NCBI GenBank assembly: GCA_002099625.1 | Contig: GCA_002099625.1_4857.1 | Length of the DNA: 64,000 nucleotides | Strand: one strand, 5' to 3' | DNA from: Escherichia coli | GTDB lineage: Bacteria; Pseudomonadota; Gammaproteobacteria; Enterobacterales; Enterobacteriaceae | Shown: piece by piece, positions 13,869 to 51,220 of the stretch | How positions within the stretch are numbered: the stretch's first letter is position 1 | How the letters are laid out: each line of letters starts with the position of its first letter | Translations under genes and position numbers: made by a program | Notes under the pieces: generated by a model | The model's input: the letters and a program-made list of their open reading frames with translations, nothing else | What the model was told of the DNA's origin: nothing | Databases searched by the model: none

Positions 13869-14132
13869 TTATTTCTCCATTGTTTTAAAGAGAACGTCTA
13901 CGCTGTTACGGAGCATATTCAATTCTTCTTCTTTCTTACGCAGCAGCATTTCAGGAGCGTTCTTTGCAAACTCTTTCAATGCCATTTGGACGACATGCGA
14001 ATCGGTTTCGTCCGGGAACAGGGCCTTTAATGCAACCCATTCTTCCGCCGTGAAAACATCGCCTTTGCGAACATTACGCTGTTGTGGTAGTCGAATTGTT
14101 TTACTGAGTCGGTCAGTCATAGCTCCACCCAA
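13869..14132 (-). CDS. Hypothetical protein (about 87 aa)
   Basis: ORF in array; start uncertain. Confidence 0.4.
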   Translation of the reverse strand: MGGAMTDRLSKTIRLPQQRNVRKGDVFTAEEWVALKALFPDETDSHVVQMALKEFAKNAPEMLLRKKEEELNMLRNSVDVLFKTMEK

Positions 14133-14653
14133 ATCAGTTTAAAGGTATTACCTTCTAAGCCGGTCGGATGGATAATCATCGCTTCGGTATAGATAGGCTC
14201 TTCTTCTGCAATACGGTGCTCAGCTGCTAAGCCTGAAAGGTGCATGTAGAGGTCTTCATCCATATCCCCGTTAAAAGATGAGGTCAGGATGAAAGGTGTG
14301 GATTCTGCGATTTGCAAAAGCGTTTCTTTGCTAATCTGCATCTCCATTGTCCGACGTCGTTCCATCCAACTGCCTTGTTCGTGGATATACGGGTCGGTAT
14401 TAATGCGAACGACAGGTTCCGTAGACATACCCAGACCACGCGACATCATCTGGATAGCCAGAAGCGTCCACCATTCTTGTTCAGCTATCGGGAAACCGAT
14501 GGCTTTCATTGTACCGTCTGGTTGTGGAACGTGCAATTGTCCACGATGTTCGTCTGGAAACTCGATGATCTTCTGTCCGTTGATAGGAATAAACGGCGGT
14601 TCGTCCGTAGCAACCACCGCTTTAGGCTTGAAGGGAACGACGTTGTCAGCCAT
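14117..14653 (-). CDS. Hypothetical protein (178 aa)
   Basis: ORF in array. Confidence 0.5.
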   Translation of the reverse strand: MADNVVPFKPKAVVATDEPPFIPINGQKIIEFPDEHRGQLHVPQPDGTMKAIGFPIAEQEWWTLLAIQMMSRGLGMSTEPVVRINTDPYIHEQGSWMERRRTMEMQISKETLLQIAESTPFILTSSFNGDMDEDLYMHLSGLAAEHRIAEEEPIYTEAMIIHPTGLEGNTFKLIWVEL

Positions 14654-14665
14654 AAACGCTCCTAA

Positions 14666-15703
14666 TTAGATAGCGACAGGTGCTTTAATTGGGTCGTGTG
14701 ATACGTAATCCTGGATCTCAAAATCATCGAACTTATAATCGAAGATAGATTCCGGTTTACGTTTGATGACCAGTTTCGCCAAAGGTAAAGGTTCGCGCGT
14801 CAGCTGCAGCTTGGCCTGCTCCAGATGGTTGGAGTACAGATGCACGTCACCGCCGCTCCAAACGAAATCGCCTGGCACCATGTTAACTTGCTGAGCTACC
14901 ATGTGTACGAGTAATGCGTAAGACGCGATATTGAACGGTACGCCAAGGAAAAAATCTGCACTACGTTGATAGAGCTGGCATGAAAGAATGCGGCGAGGTA
15001 TTTCAAGTGCGTCCATCTCAACGTGGAACACTGCGTCATCTGCTACAGCTTCATTACTAAAGCGGGAATCGTTAAATTGATCTGGAAGGTTCTTTTCAAA
15101 CCAATCAAGGCGCTCGTCGATAGACAGCTCACGAGTGTAGAACTGAAAGAACGCATGACACGGAGCTAACGCCATTTGATCCAACTCGCCCACGTTCCAT
15201 GCGCTGACAATAATACGACGACTGTCCGGGTCGTTACGCAGCTGGCCCATAACCGTCTGGATTTGGTCGTGCTCTTTCAGAAGTACACGCGCATCGAACA
15301 TTTGTGAACCATCGTCCGCGTCGCCATAATCTGCGTATCCAGCATCCTGCAGTTTCTCGAGTAAAGCTGCATTTTTCTTAGGCACCAGTTTCACATCTTT
15401 CCAACGTCTCCATTGTGCACCATAGATTTCACCTAGGTCACCGTTCTCATCTTGCCACTCACGCCAGATTGTGACCCCGTTGTCTTCCAGATATTTGGTG
15501 TTGGTGTCACCGTTAAGGAACCAGAGAAGTTCGTGAATAATAGAACGCAGGTGGAGTTTTTTAGTCGTGACTAACGGGAAGCCTTTGCGCAAATCAAAAC
15601 GCATTTGGCGACCAAAGACGGAGAGCGTCCCTGTCCCAGTACGATCGCCCTTAACATGCCCTTCATCCAGAATATTCTGCATCATTTCAAGATACTGTTT
15701 CAC
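14666..15703 (-). CDS. thyA: Thymidylate synthase (ThyA family) with two internal insertions
   Basis: Near-identical blocks to E. coli ThyA: [51 protein letters not shown] (catalytic Cys), [45 protein letters not shown] and C-terminal PIKAPVAI. Start re-picked at GTG 15703 with AAGGA RBS so the N-terminus matches MKQYLE. Confidence 0.85.
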
Positions 15704-33368: not shown

Positions 33369-34748
33369 ATGTATGATTTACAAGGCTTTATTCAAATAGC
33401 GGCTCTGATTGATAATGGCCCTGGCAACACCGCTCCGGTAGGTGAGTTGTCTGAGCTGTCATATTCGTTCGCTAAAAGCAAGCAGTATTTTACTAAAGAA
33501 AATCTGCAGGTGGAACTGGTTGCTTTTACTTCTAAACGTGACGAGTTGCCTATTAAGACCCCGGCCGTCTTTAGCGACCACGTTCTTACTGTTTCCCAAT
33601 GGATCTACCAACAGTCTATCCTGGGCAACTTAAGAAACGACGAAGTTGAATTCCAGCGTTTGCTGTTGGGGCAATTTAATAGTGTCATCAGCGGTGTTCA
33701 GTCTGGCGCGATGATTCAGACTAACAGTAACTGGTTCCCACGTTGGGTCAGTTGGAAACTTGAAACCACAGCAGATAAAGTCGAAGACCCATCTGATGTG
33801 AATAACCAGATTATTCTCTGGTTTGCTGATGAAGATTTCAATCAGGACTATACCGGATTTGAAATTGAAGTCCAAATGCCGATATTACCGGTTGATACTT
33901 TCTTGGCTGTGAAATCTGTAGTCGAAAAGGCAATGGAAGGGTTCAACCTTCCGGATCACCATAATAAGATTAACGAATTAGCTGACGGTTATCCGTACAC
34001 TAGCCTGATTACTAACATCTATACTTGGCACGACCAGGAAGACTTTGATTCCACCTTACCGATACCGATGTCGGCTATCATCTACGGACGCGCGGGTCGT
34101 AACCCGAGCAGGATTAAACAAGCGTTGCGTGATTACATTTTGGCAAACTCCAGTTTTACTGTGGCGTTGGGTGTCAAGGTGTTCCCAGAAATCTTTACGA
34201 CCACCAAGTTCACAATTGTTCCGGGTTGGTCAATTCGTGGGATTCCAAATGAGGAAGACGTTGCGGCATTATACTCGCCGATTCTCCCATATGATTTCTG
34301 GGTCAAAGCAATCTCCCGATTTGGGGAGTGGACTGTTCAAACCATTACGGAAAAAAATAGTGGAGCAATCTCAACTCCAACTACCGATGTAACGGATTTA
34401 CCGTCCATCTATAAATCACTAAACGCTGTAGTTATCGCAGGCCCTGAAAACGATTCACGCAAAACGACCCTGCACGATACGATTCCCGACTACGCATTAA
34501 TCGGCACTAACAATGCAGATATTGCGAGAATGTCGAAGAAAACCACCGAGTGGCTGGACCTGTTCTTCCAGGCGTTAATCGCAGCGGAAGAGTATCACCC
34601 ACATTCCACCCCGCTGGATATCGTGAAGCTCGTAGACGACGTTGATCCTAATGTTTACTTCTACGTCTTCGAATTCGATAACGTGGAGTATCGTGTCTTG
34701 GCCCGCAAAGCTGTTTGGGATGTCCCTGCGGCAGAGCCAGAAGCCTAA
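33369..34748 (+). CDS. Hypothetical protein (459 aa), possibly structural
   Basis: Plus-strand island ORF; divergent from the spanin-like gene with an 18-24 bp gap. Confidence 0.6.
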   Translation: MYDLQGFIQIAALIDNGPGNTAPVGELSELSYSFAKSKQYFTKENLQVELVAFTSKRDELPIKTPAVFSDHVLTVSQWIYQQSILGNLRNDEVEFQRLLLGQFNSVISGVQSGAMIQTNSNWFPRWVSWKLETTADKVEDPSDVNNQIILWFADEDFNQDYTGFEIEVQMPILPVDTFLAVKSVVEKAMEGFNLPDHHNKINELADGYPYTSLITNIYTWHDQEDFDSTLPIPMSAIIYGRAGRNPSRIKQALRDYILANSSFTVALGVKVFPEIFTTTKFTIVPGWSIRGIPNEEDVAALYSPILPYDFWVKAISRFGEWTVQTITEKNSGAISTPTTDVTDLPSIYKSLNAVVIAGPENDSRKTTLHDTIPDYALIGTNNADIARMSKKTTEWLDLFFQALIAAEEYHPHSTPLDIVKLVDDVDPNVYFYVFEFDNVEYRVLARKAVWDVPAAEPEA

Positions 34749-43912: not shown

Positions 43913-43963
43913 GTTTGCCTTCTAATGAGAAAGTATTAGTCGTTCATATCCAAAAGGCCATGC

Positions 43964-43997
43964 GTAAAAAAGAAGAAATGGAACCCCGAAGGGTTCC
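43964..43997 (-). terminator. Intrinsic terminator (minus strand)
   Basis: Stem GGAACCC / GGGTTCC with CGAA loop; T-run on the minus strand. Confidence 0.5.
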
Positions 43998-44008
43998 AGA
44001 GAGGAGAG

Positions 44009-44635
44009 TTACTGCGGAATAAACTTACGGTGTCCGAGCGATTCCCAAAAACTGTCGGTGCGCTCTTTGGTTAATTCATACCACGCACGCCCGGCATCAG
44101 AATCGACAACCTTTAACGTTTCAGTAAGCAGGAATTTGAACAGTTCAGCGCTACGACCAGGTGCTACACCGTCGAGATATATCGGAATTAAATAACCGGT
44201 TTTGATTTCTTCGTACGGTTGCGATTGGTGCTGACCAACAACCCAGGCATCAGCAGCGCTACCGACCAAAGTGGTGTTTACAGTTAACTCATCAGAAATC
44301 CAGTTAACTGTATCAGCCATTATTGAATCGCCATTGACGTAGAAGAAAACTAAACGTTTAGGTTGTTCCACCGAACCAGCCAAATCTAATGCAGTAGTTC
44401 CGGTGAAGATCGTATTATTGGGATTACGTTCTGCAATAGGTAGAGCAAACCATGCTTCGAGCTGTTCCCAGCTACGTGGTAATGCTTCTTTAAACCACTT
44501 TACTAGCCGCGGGTATTCCAGAAACCCTTCGACTTCTTCTTCCATCAGATTGATACGCAGTTTGGTATCCTGACGATTCGCTTTCTGACACGTCACCATG
44601 TCGTCAATGAAACGAATCAGGGTAATCTCGTTCAT
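44009..44635 (-). CDS. Hypothetical protein (208 aa)
   Basis: ORF between two hairpin terminators; no phosphoesterase motifs. Confidence 0.5.
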   Translation of the reverse strand: MNEITLIRFIDDMVTCQKANRQDTKLRINLMEEEVEGFLEYPRLVKWFKEALPRSWEQLEAWFALPIAERNPNNTIFTGTTALDLAGSVEQPKRLVFFYVNGDSIMADTVNWISDELTVNTTLVGSAADAWVVGQHQSQPYEEIKTGYLIPIYLDGVAPGRSAELFKFLLTETLKVVDSDAGRAWYELTKERTDSFWESLGHRKFIPQ

Positions 44636-44650
44636 GTTTAATCCTTCTTC

Positions 44651-44681
44651 AACAAAAAAAGAAGGTAGCCTACGGGCTACC
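44651..44681 (-). terminator. Intrinsic terminator (minus strand)
   Basis: Stem GGTAGCC / GGCTACC with TACG loop; 7-T run on the minus strand. Confidence 0.5.
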
Positions 44682-44689
44682 TCTCGTAT

Positions 44690-45190
44690 TTACAGCCCCA
44701 TATGCATAAGGGAAATGATTGGGACCTTACGGCCACGAATCATTGCATACGGTTCGTACATTTGTGCGTTAGTTTCGAATAACTCACAGGCCGGAATGCG
44801 GTCACCGGTAGAGAGTTGTAAGACTTCAATTTGGTCGCCCCAGAAGTTATTCACTAATACATGGTCGACCGTGTTGTCTTCACGACCTTCTGGGGTGTTG
44901 CAATAAGTGGCTGCAGCGTACCAGCCCTTACGGTATGCTTCATAACCCGCATGAAGCATCCGGTAGTACGGGCGAAGTTGTGGGGCATTCAGAGTAGCAT
45001 CTAGCCACTCGCTGTGAATGGTGTTAATTAATACGGTTGCTTCTGCTGGCCAGTCGGTGCGGTTTAGGGTTAACTCGCCTAACAGCTTTAATTTCCAGCC
45101 AGTGGAAAGAATAGCACGGGTACGTTCGGGATTGACGTTCATCTGAGTAAAGAAAGAAGAACGGGTATCGTCGAGAATGTTCATGTTCAT
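44690..45190 (-). CDS. Hypothetical protein (about 166 aa)
   Basis: Start re-picked at ATG 45190 (MNMNILDD) with AAGGA RBS; AATCGACTATT motif 21-30 nt upstream. Confidence 0.5.
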   Translation of the reverse strand: MNMNILDDTRSSFFTQMNVNPERTRAILSTGWKLKLLGELTLNRTDWPAEATVLINTIHSEWLDATLNAPQLRPYYRMLHAGYEAYRKGWYAAATYCNTPEGREDNTVDHVLVNNFWGDQIEVLQLSTGDRIPACELFETNAQMYEPYAMIRGRKVPIISLMHMGL

Positions 45191-45210
45191 TTGCTTAATC
45201 CTTACGAGTA

Positions 45211-45220
45211 ATAGTCGATT
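45211..45220 (-). promoter_or_regulatory. Promoter-like motif AATCGACTAT (minus-strand sense)
   Basis: Between a terminator and the RBS of gene 44690..45190; 21-30 nt upstream of its ATG. Confidence 0.4.
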
Positions 45221-45290
45221 AAAAAGGACCCTGCGGCTAAGTGTTGGGGATATCACCGCAGGGCCAAAGTGAGATGGGTCGTCATCTCAC
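45221..45290 (-). terminator. Tandem hairpins with T-run (minus strand)
   Basis: CCCTGCGG / CCGCAGGG (45229..45263) and GTGAGATG / CATCTCAC (45269..45290); T-run after the first hairpin on the minus strand. Confidence 0.45.
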
Positions 45291-45319
45291 GTTATAACAT
45301 CAGTCTGAAAACTTTTCGG

Positions 45320-45703
45320 TTACTGGTCGAGCGCTACTGAACCACGCACCACCCCTTGCTGTTCAATAACCAGGAGGCGTTGTTTGGTTTTCGTATTGTA
45401 AGCGAGCGACGCGCGAAGCGTCGGGTCGCACGTTATTGTCTCTACTGGCACAATCTCTTGTGCCTTTGAGTTCAACAGAAAGTAGTAACCTGCCGGACAA
45501 GTTTCCTCGCCCTTTGCGTGGACTAGGATGTACTCGTCGTGCCGGCTGACTTCTTCACATCTACCATCGTCACCAGTACAGACTTCGAACGAAGGCGGAT
45601 TGTACTGATACGGTGTGCCTGGTAGTAAATCTTCTACGCTGGTTGTAGCTGAAGCAGAAGCGGTAAAGAACACCGCCACGATAATACCCATAAATCCACG
45701 CAT
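45320..45703 (-). CDS. Secreted Cys-containing small protein (127 aa)
   Basis: N-terminal signal peptide MRGFMGIIVAVFFTASASA; several Cys residues. Confidence 0.5.
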   Translation of the reverse strand: MRGFMGIIVAVFFTASASATTSVEDLLPGTPYQYNPPSFEVCTGDDGRCEEVSRHDEYILVHAKGEETCPAGYYFLLNSKAQEIVPVETITCDPTLRASLAYNTKTKQRLLVIEQQGVVRGSVALDQ

Positions 45704-45716
45704 GTTGTTTCCTTAC

Positions 45717-46127
45717 TTAAAAGTCGAGTTTATTGATACCTACGTTTTTCTTAATCGTAGGGTCGTACATGATAACCGTCAGGGCATTATCACCTGGGTC
45801 GCGAGTAAACTCAGCAACGGCTTCACCACTGCAGGCTTGGTTATCATTGTAGTTCATGGATTCGGCTTGCCCGGTTGCCATGTTAATAACCCCGTATTCA
45901 GGGTCGCCACATGCGACACCGCCCATCGTTTTCACTAACAGGTAACGGTTGTTATCGGACATCGCAACGATCTGGCAGCTACCGCCTTGTACGTCAGAGT
46001 TCTGGCACCAGAACGGCCCGCCGTATTCGTGATCGTTAACAACTTTTGGTAACTCGATACTTCCAGCGCGAGCGAAGAAACTAATGGCCAGAGTAGCAAG
46101 TAAAACTGGTAATAAAAAATGTTTCAT
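45717..46127 (-). CDS. Secreted Cys-containing small protein (136 aa), paralog of 46150..46641
   Basis: Signal peptide MKHFLLPVLLATLAISFFARA; shares PFWC...C...V...CG with the next gene. Confidence 0.55.
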   Translation of the reverse strand: MKHFLLPVLLATLAISFFARAGSIELPKVVNDHEYGGPFWCQNSDVQGGSCQIVAMSDNNRYLLVKTMGGVACGDPEYGVINMATGQAESMNYNDNQACSGEAVAEFTRDPGDNALTVIMYDPTIKKNVGINKLDF

Positions 46128-46149
46128 AATAGCACCTCAATTTTTTGAG

Positions 46150-46641
46150 TTATTCTGAATAGTCGATTGTTTTGATGGTTTCCATACCGTAGTACATAGC
46201 GATGGAGGCCAGAGTTTTGGTATCCGGTCGCTGTACAAAACCGGCCCTGAAATCTTTGCTGCAAATTTTCTCCACTGATAGTTCATCACGATTAGGGATA
46301 AGCCATAACGCGTCACCATTGTGACGGTCGACTGCACCCCACCAACCACCTGGGCAATCTTTATCGCCAGGACGGTGTACGATAGCGACACGACCGTTGA
46401 AGGATATGTCAACTACACGACACTGTTTCTTAAGCAGCTTACGCGCATTGCACCAGAACGGCTTATCATTAAGATTGATGGTGCGGGTATATGCTGGAAT
46501 GCTGCCGTTAATACTGCCCTGGAACCCGCTGAATTCGTCAGCGTGTGCCTTAGAAATCCGTAGCCCAACAACAACTGCCATCAACAGCACAGTAAAAAGC
46601 ACCACTTTGGCCAAGTGGCGATTAACGTTATTGCATTTCAT
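46150..46641 (-). CDS. Secreted Cys-containing small protein (about 163 aa)
   Basis: Start re-picked at MKCNN; signal/anchor segment VVLFTVLLMAVVVGL; PFWCNA...C...CPGGWWG. Confidence 0.5.
   Translation of the reverse strand: MKCNNVNRHLAKVVLFTVLLMAVVVGLRISKAHADEFSGFQGSINGSIPAYTRTINLNDKPFWCNARKLLKKQCRVVDISFNGRVAIVHRPGDKDCPGGWWGAVDRHNGDALWLIPNRDELSVEKICSKDFRAGFVQRPDTKTLASIAMYYGMETIKTIDYSE
46159..46168 (-). promoter_or_regulatory. Promoter-like motif AATCGACTAT (minus-strand sense)
   Basis: 32-41 nt upstream of the ATG of secreted-protein gene 45717..46127. Confidence 0.4.
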
Positions 46642-47029
46642 TTTTAATATCTCCACGATTAAGGGTGATGCGACCGACGAGCACATCGTTGTGATAAAAG
46701 CTCACAGCAACCATATTCGGTAATTCCAGTGGTGACACACTGACCGAGGTGACTTTTGGTTGATTGCACGATATGTCAATCAACCGCTGATACATTTTCA
46801 ATTTCTTATCAGCGATAACCAGCCCTGTGCAGTTCTTACCGTCCGTCAGTCTGTAGATTTGTAACTGTTCGACCTCACGCATCAGTTCTGGTTTTTCATT
46901 CGGCGCAATGCCATAATCCGAATCAGCTGATGTGTATTCAGTCACGTCTGGCTTATCGAAAGCATAAGTTGCTGCAATACCACATGCGGCCAGAACTACT
47001 ACTGCTTGTAAGAACTTCTTGATAGTCAT
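46628..47029 (-). CDS. Secreted small protein (133 aa)
   Basis: Signal peptide MTIKKFLQAVVVLAACGIAATYA; AATCGACTATA motif 11-20 nt upstream of the ATG. Confidence 0.5.
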   Translation of the reverse strand: MTIKKFLQAVVVLAACGIAATYAFDKPDVTEYTSADSDYGIAPNEKPELMREVEQLQIYRLTDGKNCTGLVIADKKLKMYQRLIDISCNQPKVTSVSVSPLELPNMVAVSFYHNDVLVGRITLNRGDIKNEMQ

Positions 47030-47039
47030 GTTTTACTCT

Positions 47040-47049
47040 ATAGTCGATT
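47040..47049 (-). promoter_or_regulatory. Promoter-like motif AATCGACTAT (minus-strand sense)
   Basis: Between terminator 47054..47083 and the ATG of secreted-protein gene 46628..47029. Confidence 0.4.
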
Positions 47050-47053
47050 GGTT

Positions 47054-47083
47054 TAAAAAAGAATAGGCTACCCGAGGGTAGCC
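47054..47083 (-). terminator. Intrinsic terminator (minus strand)
   Basis: Stem GGCTACCC / GGTAGCC with GAG loop; TATTCTTTTTT on the minus strand. Confidence 0.55.
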
Positions 47084-47112
47084 AGTTGAGTTAATCTCTT
47101 AACTCTCACCTA

Positions 47113-47132
47113 GGTAATATATATCTGAGATA
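47113..47132. promoter_or_regulatory. Degenerate variant GGTAATATATATCTGAGATA (possible site 4)
   Basis: Shares TAATAT..ATCTGAGAT with site 1; sits between the stop of 47135..47731 and its terminator. Confidence 0.2.
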
Positions 47133-47134
47133 TT

Positions 47135-47731
47135 TTACAATGTGAAGGTTGTGTTAAGAATACGAAAACCCAATGCTCGCTTAGCGATTTGCATATTTGC
47201 AGGCGTGAAGTCCACCAGTTTGATTTGAACGATCGATAAATCGTAAAGCTTGTGAAGCACTTCGATTTTGTGTCGCCAATCTGTTTTTTGGTGCAGCTCT
47301 ATCGTCGTCGGTAACTCACCCAGTCTCGGCAACTGCGCCCCAAGTAAACGATGATGGACTTTACCGTTTATAGTTGGGGTGCCTTCCGTGACCATCAGTC
47401 GCGCATCGATGTAGTTATTTCGCTTAGCGTACTCCATAAAAGTTTTGACATTTATCTTTTCCTCGTATAGAATGCTGCGAAAGTATTCGTAAATGATGTG
47501 TCCTGCCTCCCTACCGCTTTCCGAGTCTGGAATAACCTTATCGATGAAAATCGCAGAGACCACTTCGCTCCCACGCGAATGCATTGTAATGACCCTATCC
47601 CCGTGCTCTGCGGCAGTTAATAATCCACTCACATCAAGCCCCACCGGAAACAAGCCACGACTACGCATTACGTGCAGGTCTTCTAACTTGTTCTCTTGCA
47701 GTCGTAAAATACGTTCTGTCATATACCACAC
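47135..47731 (-). CDS. Hypothetical protein (198 aa)
   Basis: ORF between two hairpin terminators. Confidence 0.5.
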   Translation of the reverse strand: MWYMTERILRLQENKLEDLHVMRSRGLFPVGLDVSGLLTAAEHGDRVITMHSRGSEVVSAIFIDKVIPDSESGREAGHIIYEYFRSILYEEKINVKTFMEYAKRNNYIDARLMVTEGTPTINGKVHHRLLGAQLPRLGELPTTIELHQKTDWRHKIEVLHKLYDLSIVQIKLVDFTPANMQIAKRALGFRILNTTFTL

Positions 47732-47754
47732 CTCAAATTAATTTGAGTTAAGTG

Positions 47755-47796
47755 TAAAAAATAAGAGGACTCCAGTAACCGCGAGGGTTACTGGAG
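47755..47796 (-). terminator. Intrinsic terminator (minus strand)
   Basis: Stem CTCCAGTAACC / GGGTTACTGGAG with GCGA loop; T-run on the minus strand. Confidence 0.55.
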
Positions 47797-47801
47797 ATAA
47801 A

Positions 47802-48329
47802 CTACACACTCAACGTTTCAATGAATTTGATGCGCGCTGGGTGAAATGTGTGATAAACAGTTACTGGCGCGTGCGGGCCTTCGGCTGCGTGTATTGCGCC
47901 ATCGTATCCGCTCAGCAACAGATGGTCATATATCGCACTACAGTTATACGCCACCGATGCCCATAGTGGTAACTTGTCAAACTCTTTAGGGTGTTGGTGG
48001 TAAACCTCCATCAAACCCTTTTCAGGATGACGCTCTTGGATACGCTCCCACTCATTTGTTTCAATGAGCAAGTTCCCTTTCTTCTGTGCAACTGTCTGGT
48101 ATTGATGCGGGGAAAGAATCTCGCGGAAATTACCGATATCGACGAACGGGTCAGTAGGATCGTTGATAAACGGATTGGTGATTTCCAAAGAAACGTGGTT
48201 GATTAGCCAGCTGGGATTCGCTTTAACAATTTCAGCAGGGACATCGATGTCTTTATAGACAACTTGAGAACGTGAAAGGTTAGCCTCAACAAACGGCTTA
48301 TCAGTAACAATATAACCTTCGAGTTTCAT
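47802..48329 (-). CDS. Hypothetical protein (175 aa)
   Basis: ORF in array. Confidence 0.5.
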   Translation of the reverse strand: MKLEGYIVTDKPFVEANLSRSQVVYKDIDVPAEIVKANPSWLINHVSLEITNPFINDPTDPFVDIGNFREILSPHQYQTVAQKKGNLLIETNEWERIQERHPEKGLMEVYHQHPKEFDKLPLWASVAYNCSAIYDHLLLSGYDGAIHAAEGPHAPVTVYHTFHPARIKFIETLSV

Positions 48330-50902: not shown

Positions 50903-51220
50903 TTAGTATACAACCAGTACGATGCAGTCATCGATAGCCAGATTCAGTAATGCGTAGTCGTTACTTAACCGCTGGTAACGCATCCCTTTTTCAAACTGAC
51001 TTAGTTGTTCAGTCGGCATGACGTATACCGCGCTTTGCACTACTCCCGTAAACAGTTCGTTGTAGAACTGGTCTACTTCCCCGACTTTGTAAAAGCGCAT
51101 TCTTTGATTGTTAGCAAAGACGCTGTCTAGCTTCCCGTTACTGGCTTTCTGTACCGCAGTAAAGGCACTGTCTGCATCATTACGCTCTAATGCACTTTTA
51201 ATGGTTTGAAATAAAGACAT
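50903..51220 (-). CDS. Hypothetical protein (105 aa)
   Basis: ORF diverging from the plus-strand gene at 51401. Confidence 0.45.
   Translation of the reverse strand: MSLFQTIKSALERNDADSAFTAVQKASNGKLDSVFANNQRMRFYKVGEVDQFYNELFTGVVQSAVYVMPTEQLSQFEKGMRYQRLSNDYALLNLAIDDCIVLVVY

Follow-up and report, generated by a model that had tools for sequence, protein, structure and literature searches.

The 10-nucleotide (nt) sequence AATCGACTAT forms the core of a cis-element that is conserved and strand-specific and lies close to start codons in SPN3US-like jumbo phages. It was noticed in a 64,000-nt stretch of DNA (hereafter the window) deposited under Escherichia coli (assembly GCA_002099625.1, contig GCA_002099625.1_4857.1), where a preliminary description of positions 45,191 to 47,083, made from the letters alone, had reported three copies of it among four genes for small secreted proteins. 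Window region 44600–47800 is 96–98% identical to the Salmonella jumbo phage SPN3US and about 40 relatives, and ~73% identical to SPAsTU and STsAS; judged by this similarity, the window is that of an SPN3US-like (Seoulvirus) jumbo phage. The RefSeq counterparts of the four cluster genes in SPN3US are gp86, gp85, gp84, and gp83, followed by gp82, all annotated as "hypothetical protein," and we use these names for the window genes as well. By analogy with other jumbo phages, we favor the reading that the element may serve the non-virion RNA polymerase of the phage as a second promoter, to which we give a probability of about 0.4.

With the SPN3US and SPAsTU genomes assembled whole for motif counts, AATCGACTAT occurs eight times on the main coding strand of SPN3US and never on the other (~0.2 copies expected per strand), and further copies with one mismatch sit at the equivalent place before starts. 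It ranks among the top strand-specific 10-mers of SPN3US, in the company of terminator T-runs, the Shine–Dalgarno (SD) leader AAGGAGTATT, and two early boxes. The word TCGACYAT is found 21 times on the main strand and 7 times on the other in SPN3US (7.5 expected per strand), and 30 and 6 times in SPAsTU; an SD, a start codon, and an open reading frame follow 11 of the 21 and 16 of the 30 main-strand copies, and none of those on the other strand. Copies inside genes on the coding strand number 10 against 7.5 expected in SPN3US and 14 against 7.7 in SPAsTU. Since the excess is confined to copies followed by an SD and start codon, and in-gene copies stay near chance, the positional signal is genuine. 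The genome-wide check of position that the preliminary description had proposed thus bears out an excess before SD and start, although copies inside genes do exist at the near-chance numbers just given. Motif-bearing starts (~13 in SPN3US, ~16 in SPAsTU) are scattered over the genomes, usually with the motif 10–21 nt before the start codon, which together with the 8:0 strand count contradicts the earlier claim that the motif is private to one cluster. They occur in three settings: behind an early box and 5′ stem-loop, before internal cistrons of box-headed operons, and right after terminators.

The window itself contains exactly three copies of AATCGACTAT, on the minus strand only:

47040–47049, minus strand: motif copy A, 10 nt before the gp86 ATG, right after a terminator hairpin and T-run.
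46159–46168, minus strand: motif copy B (doubtful), in the last gp85 codons (T-I-D-Y), 31 nt before the gp84 ATG.
45211–45220, minus strand: motif copy C, 20 nt before the gp82 ATG, directly behind a T-run.

The measured distances of 10, 31, and 20 nt agree with the range of 10–40 nt given earlier, and two copies, A and C, do directly follow terminators, as had been said. Three copies within 2 kb beside four signal-peptide genes had been read as a private promoter or operator of this cluster for periplasm-targeted proteins. That reading is contradicted by the whole-genome counts, the motif being genome-wide, and it fares no better locally: neither gp85 nor gp83 is preceded by a copy, copy B is not conserved, and the third copy serves gp82, whose product has no signal peptide, so that two rather than three of the secreted-protein genes are preceded by the motif. 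Across SPN3US, signal-peptide or transmembrane N-termini are found in 3/11 motif genes (gp200, of 47 amino acids (aa), gp86, and gp84), while the others include genes for an Xre-like helix-turn-helix (HTH) protein and an HD-domain protein as well as gp82; with 3/11 exported or membrane products, the motif is not a secretion regulon. What stands of the proposed promoter or operator is a cis-signal near starts, strand-specific and with a definable footprint; its dedication to periplasmic proteins does not, and we regard a regulator private to the cluster as extremely improbable.

Relatives that are 95–98% identical are too alike to reveal selection. When 11 orthologous leaders of SPN3US and SPAsTU are aligned on the motif, identity within the 10-mer is 0.92 as against 0.59 upstream and 0.62 downstream; no change is seen at positions 1, 3–7, and 10, position 8 alternates between C and T, and position 2 varies freely. 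The footprint reads A-N-TCGAC-Y-A-T-N-A, with the core A-N-TCGAC-Y-AT, and the Seoulvirus consensus is yTA-AATCGACYAT-TA-N3-5-TAAGGAGTATT-N3-4-ATG. Such pyrimidine-only variation suggests that a single strand is read out. The Erwinia-phage genera have the form ATYGACYAT, set against the SD at 1–2 nt (…ATTGACTAT-CAAGGA…); in Seoulvirus it usually lies 7–9 nt before the SD. In 324 kb of relatives, 15/17 occurrences of ATYGACYAT stand just before an SD and ATG, 8 of those without a nearby early box.

The three window sites differ in their conservation. The site of copy A reads AATCGACTgT in SPN3US itself, AATCGACcAT in SPAsTU, and AtTCGACTAT in the Erwinia phage phiEaH2, the distance to the ATG again being 10 nt in the latter two. 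At the site of copy C, SPAsTU and phiEaH2 have the exact sequence between diverged flanks, phiEaH2 with an 11-nt insertion upstream; IMG/VR contig 3300031418 retains the 9-nt core, and the Erwinia phage Huxley has a degenerate form (TTGACTAT). Copy C is the sole conserved non-SD block from the strong conserved terminator to gp82. Copy B is missing at the orthologous site of three more distant relatives, SPAsTU, phiEaH2, and Huxley, and its spacing of 31 nt falls outside the 10–21 nt of the other copies; from these alignments it is lineage-specific and may be fortuitous or very young. In phiEaH2 and SPAsTU a 79-aa gene is inserted between the early box and terminator, on one side, and the motif of gp86, on the other, and SPAsTU also has extra genes behind the early box before its gp200 and gp165 homologs. 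The old genes keep the motif despite these insertions, which ties the motif to the gene start and not to the early box. Together, these data show that the element is real, under purifying selection, linked to starts, and not specific for secreted proteins. As a side observation, the annotated TTG start of Huxley gp195 (621–1187) falls within the degenerate motif; translation more likely starts at an ATG that lies 21 nt farther downstream and has CGAGG before it.

The window triple taken alone is only weakly beyond chance, and the support for the element is genome-wide and comparative. For a word specified in advance, 0.07 copies are expected in the window, in line with the ~0.1 quoted in the preliminary description; that figure does not carry over to a word picked post hoc, since the window holds 365 distinct 10-mers with at least three copies, and Markov-simulated windows contain a same-strand triple within 2 kb in 13–28% of cases. 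Variants of AATCGACTAT with one or two mismatches are not enriched in the window. One could therefore see the copies as functionless, either chance occurrences or decaying remnants of duplicated leader cassettes: the triple is only modestly improbable, copy B is explicable by its I-D-Y codons and not conserved, and conserved cassettes can spread by recombination, as do the mobile regulatory promoter-early stem-loop (PeSL) cassettes of T4-type phages reportedly described by Arbiol et al. in 2010. Such an origin is hard to square with 11 orthologous sites at which the motif is so much better conserved than flanks of ~0.6 identity, with a copy C that is exact across genera in otherwise non-alignable intergenic DNA, and with the strict bias of strand and position. 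We consider the absence of any function very unlikely; site by site, chance or relic is unlikely for copies A and C and plausible for B.

Two other repeats turned up in the window. ACAATGGAGA (~13873–15415, minus strand) is the sole other same-strand 10-mer triple within 2 kb, and its copies, in coding contexts with nothing else in common, look like chance. The 13-mer TAATGCGTAGTCG occurs at 47658–47670 (minus), 34487–34499 (minus), and 50948–50960 (plus), on both strands and with no flanking similarity. Three exact 13-mers are still unexpected by chance; with two copies in SPN3US and none in SPAsTU, TAATGCGTAGTCG is probably not a conserved element.

The local picture also needs correction upstream, where the cluster proves to be part of a unit headed by a phiKZ-type early box and provided with a leader terminator:

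47105–47126, minus strand: class I phiKZ-type early-promoter box AGATATATATTAC-CTAGGTGAG, an exact match that heads the region.
47088–47105, minus strand: stem-loop GAGTTAA-gaga-TTAACTC (RNAfold), adjoining the box and likely the 5′ end of the early transcript.
47052–47083, minus strand: terminator-like hairpin GGCTACCCTCGGGTAGCC and T-run (scan), within the 5′ leader from early box to gp86.
45221–45290, minus strand: two hairpins and a T-run closing the gp86–gp83 unit, the second loop with conserved UCCCCAACAC.
44683–44662, minus strand: terminator after gp82 (scan).

The early box is of a known kind, and a phage promoter or leader signal is likewise familiar as a kind. As a 19–22-mer the box has six copies in SPN3US, on the main coding strand only, is found in 37 IMG/VR stretches from ~13 jumbo-phage contigs, and is kept in at least 10 jumbo-phage genomes of several genera. 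This conservation across genera explains why Erwinia phages match the window at 47088–47136 (92%) with no other part aligning. Counting AGATA(T/G)ATATTAY and the related AGATAGATATTATCT together, SPN3US has 19 copies at ≤1 mismatch, all on the coding strand. According to a review, early virion-polymerase promoters are AT-rich, ~10 nt long, centered near −10, and found by bioinformatic prediction in all jumbo phages with RNA polymerases of their own. The box, like other phiKZ-type early promoters, is AT-rich, present in multiple copies, placed at operon heads, and kept across genera; these marks are found in the box (47126–47114) and not in AATCGACTAT, which is 60% AT, lies 22–73 nt downstream of the box, and occurs box-free too. 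The phiKZ early consensus, TATATTAC, resembles the box described here.

Box and motif are often parts of one leader cassette. The box TTTCAGATATATATTACYTAGGTGAG stands 38–73 nt ahead of six SPN3US motif copies, exact or with one mismatch and including the counterpart of window copy A; a degenerate version at SPN3US 4430 precedes a seventh, and an eighth comes ~20 nt after a TAGATATTAT-type box. The order after the box is stem-loop, G-poor linker, motif, SD, and ATG. Over 41 unique cassettes the 5′ stem-loop has a median minimum free energy (MFE) z-score of −3.0 and 28 different 5′ arms, so the stem is kept while its sequence changes, and the G-poor linker likely keeps the region beyond it unstructured. 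RNAalifold on MAFFT alignments was unsuitable, as it put stems out of register, and sequences were instead folded individually with shuffles. With TA added, the motif resembles the class II box in its 3′ half (TATTATCT); the likeness holds in Seoulvirus only and not for the Erwinia copies, and we dismissed it as coincidence. The T4 PeSL resembles the leader arrangement: a repeated cassette of ~60 nt (early promoter, stem-loop, and leader) flanks variable small genes, and relatives show gene insertions amid the cassette parts. Unlike in T4, the promoter is of the phage-polymerase and not the sigma-70 type, and recombination is inferred from gene-content differences alone. Boxes of the AGATAGATATTATCT class in the window (AGATAGATATTAT-like; first bases 38370, 29277, and 21713, minus strand) do not have the extended CTAGGTGAG with hairpin and motif, unlike the TATATATTAC class.

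Box, 5′ stem-loop, and strong terminator-like hairpin precede the first gene within 47052–47126 (minus strand). In phiKZ and 201phi2-1, terminators in 5′ untranslated regions (UTRs) yield abundant short RNAs plus read-through transcripts; by the same logic, the leader layout here predicts an abundant short RNA of ~50–60 nt with conditional read-through. Both 47083–47066 and 45265–45227, each followed by a T-run, have the properties of intrinsic terminators, with the motif outside the hairpins, and the former is kept in SPN3US, SPAsTU, and phiEaH2. The gp83–gp82 spacer folds with an MFE of −32.9 kcal/mol (z = −5.4), and the same two-hairpin fold with changed arms is present in SPAsTU, phiEaH2, and IMG/VR contig 3300031418, while Huxley keeps at least the second hairpin. 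In the former three the arms change in a compensatory manner, and the second-hairpin loop, of 17–20 nt, keeps UCCCCAACA(C); Huxley has CCCCUAAGA. Loop conservation of this sort at 45221–45290 is unusual for a plain terminator. An Rfam scan of 44000–48000 at E ≤ 1 gave no credible match (SNORD15 reached 25.5 bits against a gathering threshold of 75).

SPN3US is among the phiKZ-like phages with both a virion and a non-virion multisubunit RNA polymerase, and its annotated RNA polymerase genes are only of the beta/beta′-like multisubunit type. In the mechanism that we propose, the early box at 47126–47105 would head the region, copy A would act before the gp86–gp83 operon, behind the leader terminator, and copy C before the single-gene gp82 unit, behind the operon terminator. 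The motif would be a second promoter, overlapping or abutting the transcription start and read by the non-virion polymerase, by which selected genes behind early promoters could keep being transcribed past the virion-polymerase phase. Non-virion polymerases of jumbo phages recognize short motifs at or near the start site that are read on one strand (TATG in phiKZ, AACA-N6-TW in AR9). AR9 has tandem early and late promoters as well as late promoters internal to early operons, and phiKZ chmA (PHIKZ054) has an early primary transcription start site plus a middle secondary one. The AR9 "continuously expressed" genes and phiKZ chmA share with our motif genes the layout of an early promoter and then a second motif before the same gene, and further copies of the second motif stand inside box-headed operons before selected genes. 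As in promoter recognition by the phiKZ and AR9 non-virion polymerases, the footprint is short (10–12 nt), variation is confined to pyrimidines, and the start would lie at or near the motif; the footprint is longer than the 4-nt phiKZ motif, and recognition by the polymerase is putative here. The position of the motif leaves room for a start site at its 3′ end with both the Seoulvirus and the Erwinia-phage spacing, and the variable distance from motif to SD and the placement after terminators agree with a promoter.

Several points weigh against this reading. The literature that we searched yielded no transcriptome and no transcription start data for SPN3US-like phages, and the start site is a predicted one. 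In sequence the motif is related neither to the phiKZ late (TATG) nor to the phiKZ middle (TACT at −22) nor to the AR9 late (AACA-N6-TW) consensus: AATCGACYAT(T/C)A contains no TATG, AATC-N6-TA departs from AACA-N6-TW at 2/4 upstream positions, and with a TACT-like center at −22 transcription would begin only at the ATG, downstream of the conserved SD. Unlike AR9 late promoters, the motif does not precede virion genes; none of the ~13 motif genes is annotated as one, so it is not a general late promoter. There are also motif-free genes right after terminators (gp81, gp87, gp80, and the SPAsTU 79-aa gene), and such junctions thus do not demonstrably need a promoter. If transcription began at the motif end, leaders would be very short, with 8–10 nt for gp86 and, in the Erwinia phages, an SD right at the 5′ end. 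Finally, a copy per cistron and a G-poor, unstructured linker fit an RNA-level signal equally well.

Such a signal in the 5′ UTR, either the operator of a translational repressor or activator or an endoribonuclease site at which early transcripts are trimmed or inactivated, is the main alternative, possible if doubtful. The motif is always on the transcribed strand, 0–9 nt upstream of the SD; it is repeated before successive cistrons of box-headed operons (gp211/gp210, gp17..gp15, and the SPAsTU insertions); the linker from 5′ hairpin to motif is G-poor and likely unstructured; variation is limited to C/U positions; and a regulon of ~13–16 genes is comparable to that of T4 RegA. RegA of T4 acts through translational operators and RegB through cleavage of early mRNAs, and these closest functional analogues have in common with the motif genes a signal close to the SD that is shared by about a dozen genes, here mostly behind early boxes; their sequence is unrelated to the motif described here, and no homolog of RegA or RegB turned up, no search aimed at one having been made. 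An RNA signal sits less easily with the lack of an identified binding protein or nuclease, with an SD spacing that is not fixed (0–2 or 7–9 nt), and with in-gene copies at or slightly above chance, where a cleavage site would be depleted. A translational enhancer that pairs with rRNA is unlikely, the duplex of the motif with E. coli 16S rRNA being no better than that of shuffled motifs.

Recognition on double-stranded DNA has to be weighed too. The motif might be an operator at which a DNA-binding protein made early by the phage, such as the Xre-like HTH protein (RefSeq gp165 homolog), modulates or shuts off transcription. The HTH gene is itself preceded by box, hairpin, and motif in SPN3US and by the motif in SPAsTU, a classic layout of autoregulation, and the position of the motif behind early boxes is one at which a roadblock would act. 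Yet operators on double-stranded DNA are usually symmetric or independent of orientation, whereas the motif is asymmetric, single at each site, and strictly stranded (8:0); a roadblock would be needless before internal cistrons and after terminators; and pyrimidine-only variation argues for single-strand recognition. We hold a DNA operator to be unlikely.

Other known signals were considered and rejected. A scan of the minus strand gave no sigma-70-like site at copy A, B, or C, and in the Erwinia phages the pair TTGACT...TATCAT has a spacer of only 12 nt as against 16–18 nt for sigma-70. A T7/SP6-type promoter would be a conserved stretch of ~20 nt that ends in TATAG at the start site, with a single-subunit RNA polymerase gene in the phage; CGACTATAG is present in copy A only, the other copies having TATT or TATC, and the annotated polymerase genes of SPN3US are multisubunit ones. 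The motif might also be read as the end of an upstream open reading frame, ATC GAC TAT TAA (I-D-Y-stop); no start codon with an SD precedes it, and conservation does not extend to the TAA.

Taken together, we think it rather probable that the motif either represents a class of non-virion RNA polymerase promoters, the first to be predictable from sequence in enterobacterial nucleus-forming jumbo phages, or is the operator of a hitherto unseen post-transcriptional regulon of early mRNAs, and that either way it marks ~13–16 co-regulated genes in Seoulvirus, Erskinevirus, and Machinavirus, those for exported 4-Cys proteins included. In the literature searched, the 10-mer element and its regulon are not described, and no paper joins CGACTAT with jumbo phages. 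A review notes that bioinformatics fails to predict the middle and late promoters of these phages; the motif gives concrete sites for the study of 5′ ends in SPN3US, a genetically tractable model phage. Its practical value is moderate and lies in expression parts for phage engineering and in better operon annotation.

The genes of the cluster and the gene behind it are as follows:

46628–47029, minus strand: gp86 homolog, 133 aa; predicted secreted or membrane-anchored; two conserved Cys; phrog_9424.
46150–46641, minus strand: gp85 homolog, 163 aa; signal peptide; 4-Cys paralog family; phrog_17072.
45717–46127, minus strand: gp84 homolog, 136 aa; signal peptide; 4-Cys family; all-beta model.
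45320–45703, minus strand: gp83 homolog, 127 aa; signal peptide; 4-Cys family; phrog_5248.
44690–45190, minus strand: gp82 homolog, 166 aa; no signal peptide; single-gene unit flanked by terminators; phrog_8115.

Inspection of the translations confirms four consecutive minus-strand genes for proteins of 127–163 aa with signal-peptide-like N-termini. All four N-termini have a basic n-region, a hydrophobic stretch of 12–16 residues, and a small-x-small site (putative cleavage at TYA|F, AHA|D, ARA|G, and ASA|T), a pattern that by inspection conforms to Sec signal peptides and is kept in orthologs. The earlier count of two paralogs has to be raised to three: the gp83, gp84, and gp85 homologs match each other's PHROGs (the gp85 homolog cross-matches phrog_8968 at 3e-8 and the gp83 homolog at 1e-3) and have four invariant Cys in an alignment with orthologs of three other phages, and on this sequence evidence they are paralogs. 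The gp86 homolog is not a fourth (hhalign E = 0.024, probability 2%) but a separate family, and we also rejected it as a lipoprotein, for which a conserved lipobox [LVI][ASTVI][GAS]C is expected, the Cys of the lipobox-like LAAC in the window protein being missing in the SPAsTU, phiEaH2, and Huxley orthologs. For the small proteins no match to a Pfam family or a solved fold was significant, and an exhaustive profile search found only 34 cluster representatives in 1.84 billion proteins. The 4-Cys all-beta family is restricted to the SPN3US-like phage lineage and uncharacterized. A role in the virion was considered and rejected: the genes, which we take to be among those renumbered gp179–gp184, are not mentioned under these names in the paper on SPN3US virion and essential genes.

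From the features of these sequences we infer that exported, probably disulfide-bonded proteins are encoded behind an early-type box. T4 Imm and Sp and T5 Llp are phage-encoded exported exclusion proteins; the window proteins are likewise small and predicted to be exported, here behind an early-type promoter box. That the four proteins act on the envelope, in superinfection exclusion or envelope remodelling as the preliminary description had proposed, is a reasonable guess at most. The 4-Cys secreted proteins behind the early box are candidates for envelope-directed functions.

Some further observations concern other signals and the sources of the data. The T-runs of terminators often have a conserved AC(G/A)C behind them, as in TTTTTTACAC before gp87 (47752–47761, minus strand) and TTTTTTACGC before gp80 (43962–43971, minus strand); at both places it is found in SPAsTU and phiEaH2 too, and SPN3US shows a bias to the coding strand (12:1 for TTTTTTAC, 5:0 for TTTTTTACGT). 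This may be another promoter-like signal fused to terminators. A conserved AATCGACCAT-G-AAGGAG-N6-GTG at SPN3US 112244–112270 and SPAsTU 233630 (reverse-complemented genome) lies inside the annotated 3′ end of gp136, and the gp136/gp135 overlap suggests a mis-annotated gene boundary. Logan contigs were considered as a proxy for transcripts and rejected, the contigs being genomic; one contig of 4.9 kb starts 2 nt ahead of the repeated early box, probably because assembly broke off at a repeat rather than because a transcript ends there. Near-identical SPN3US-like contigs of 91 to 242 kb, two of them ~242 kb, are present in assemblies GCA_014927245.1, GCA_021556935.1, GCA_028744415.1, and GCA_004248845.1; if these four represent bacterial isolates, they suggest carrier-state infection or contamination of the cultures.

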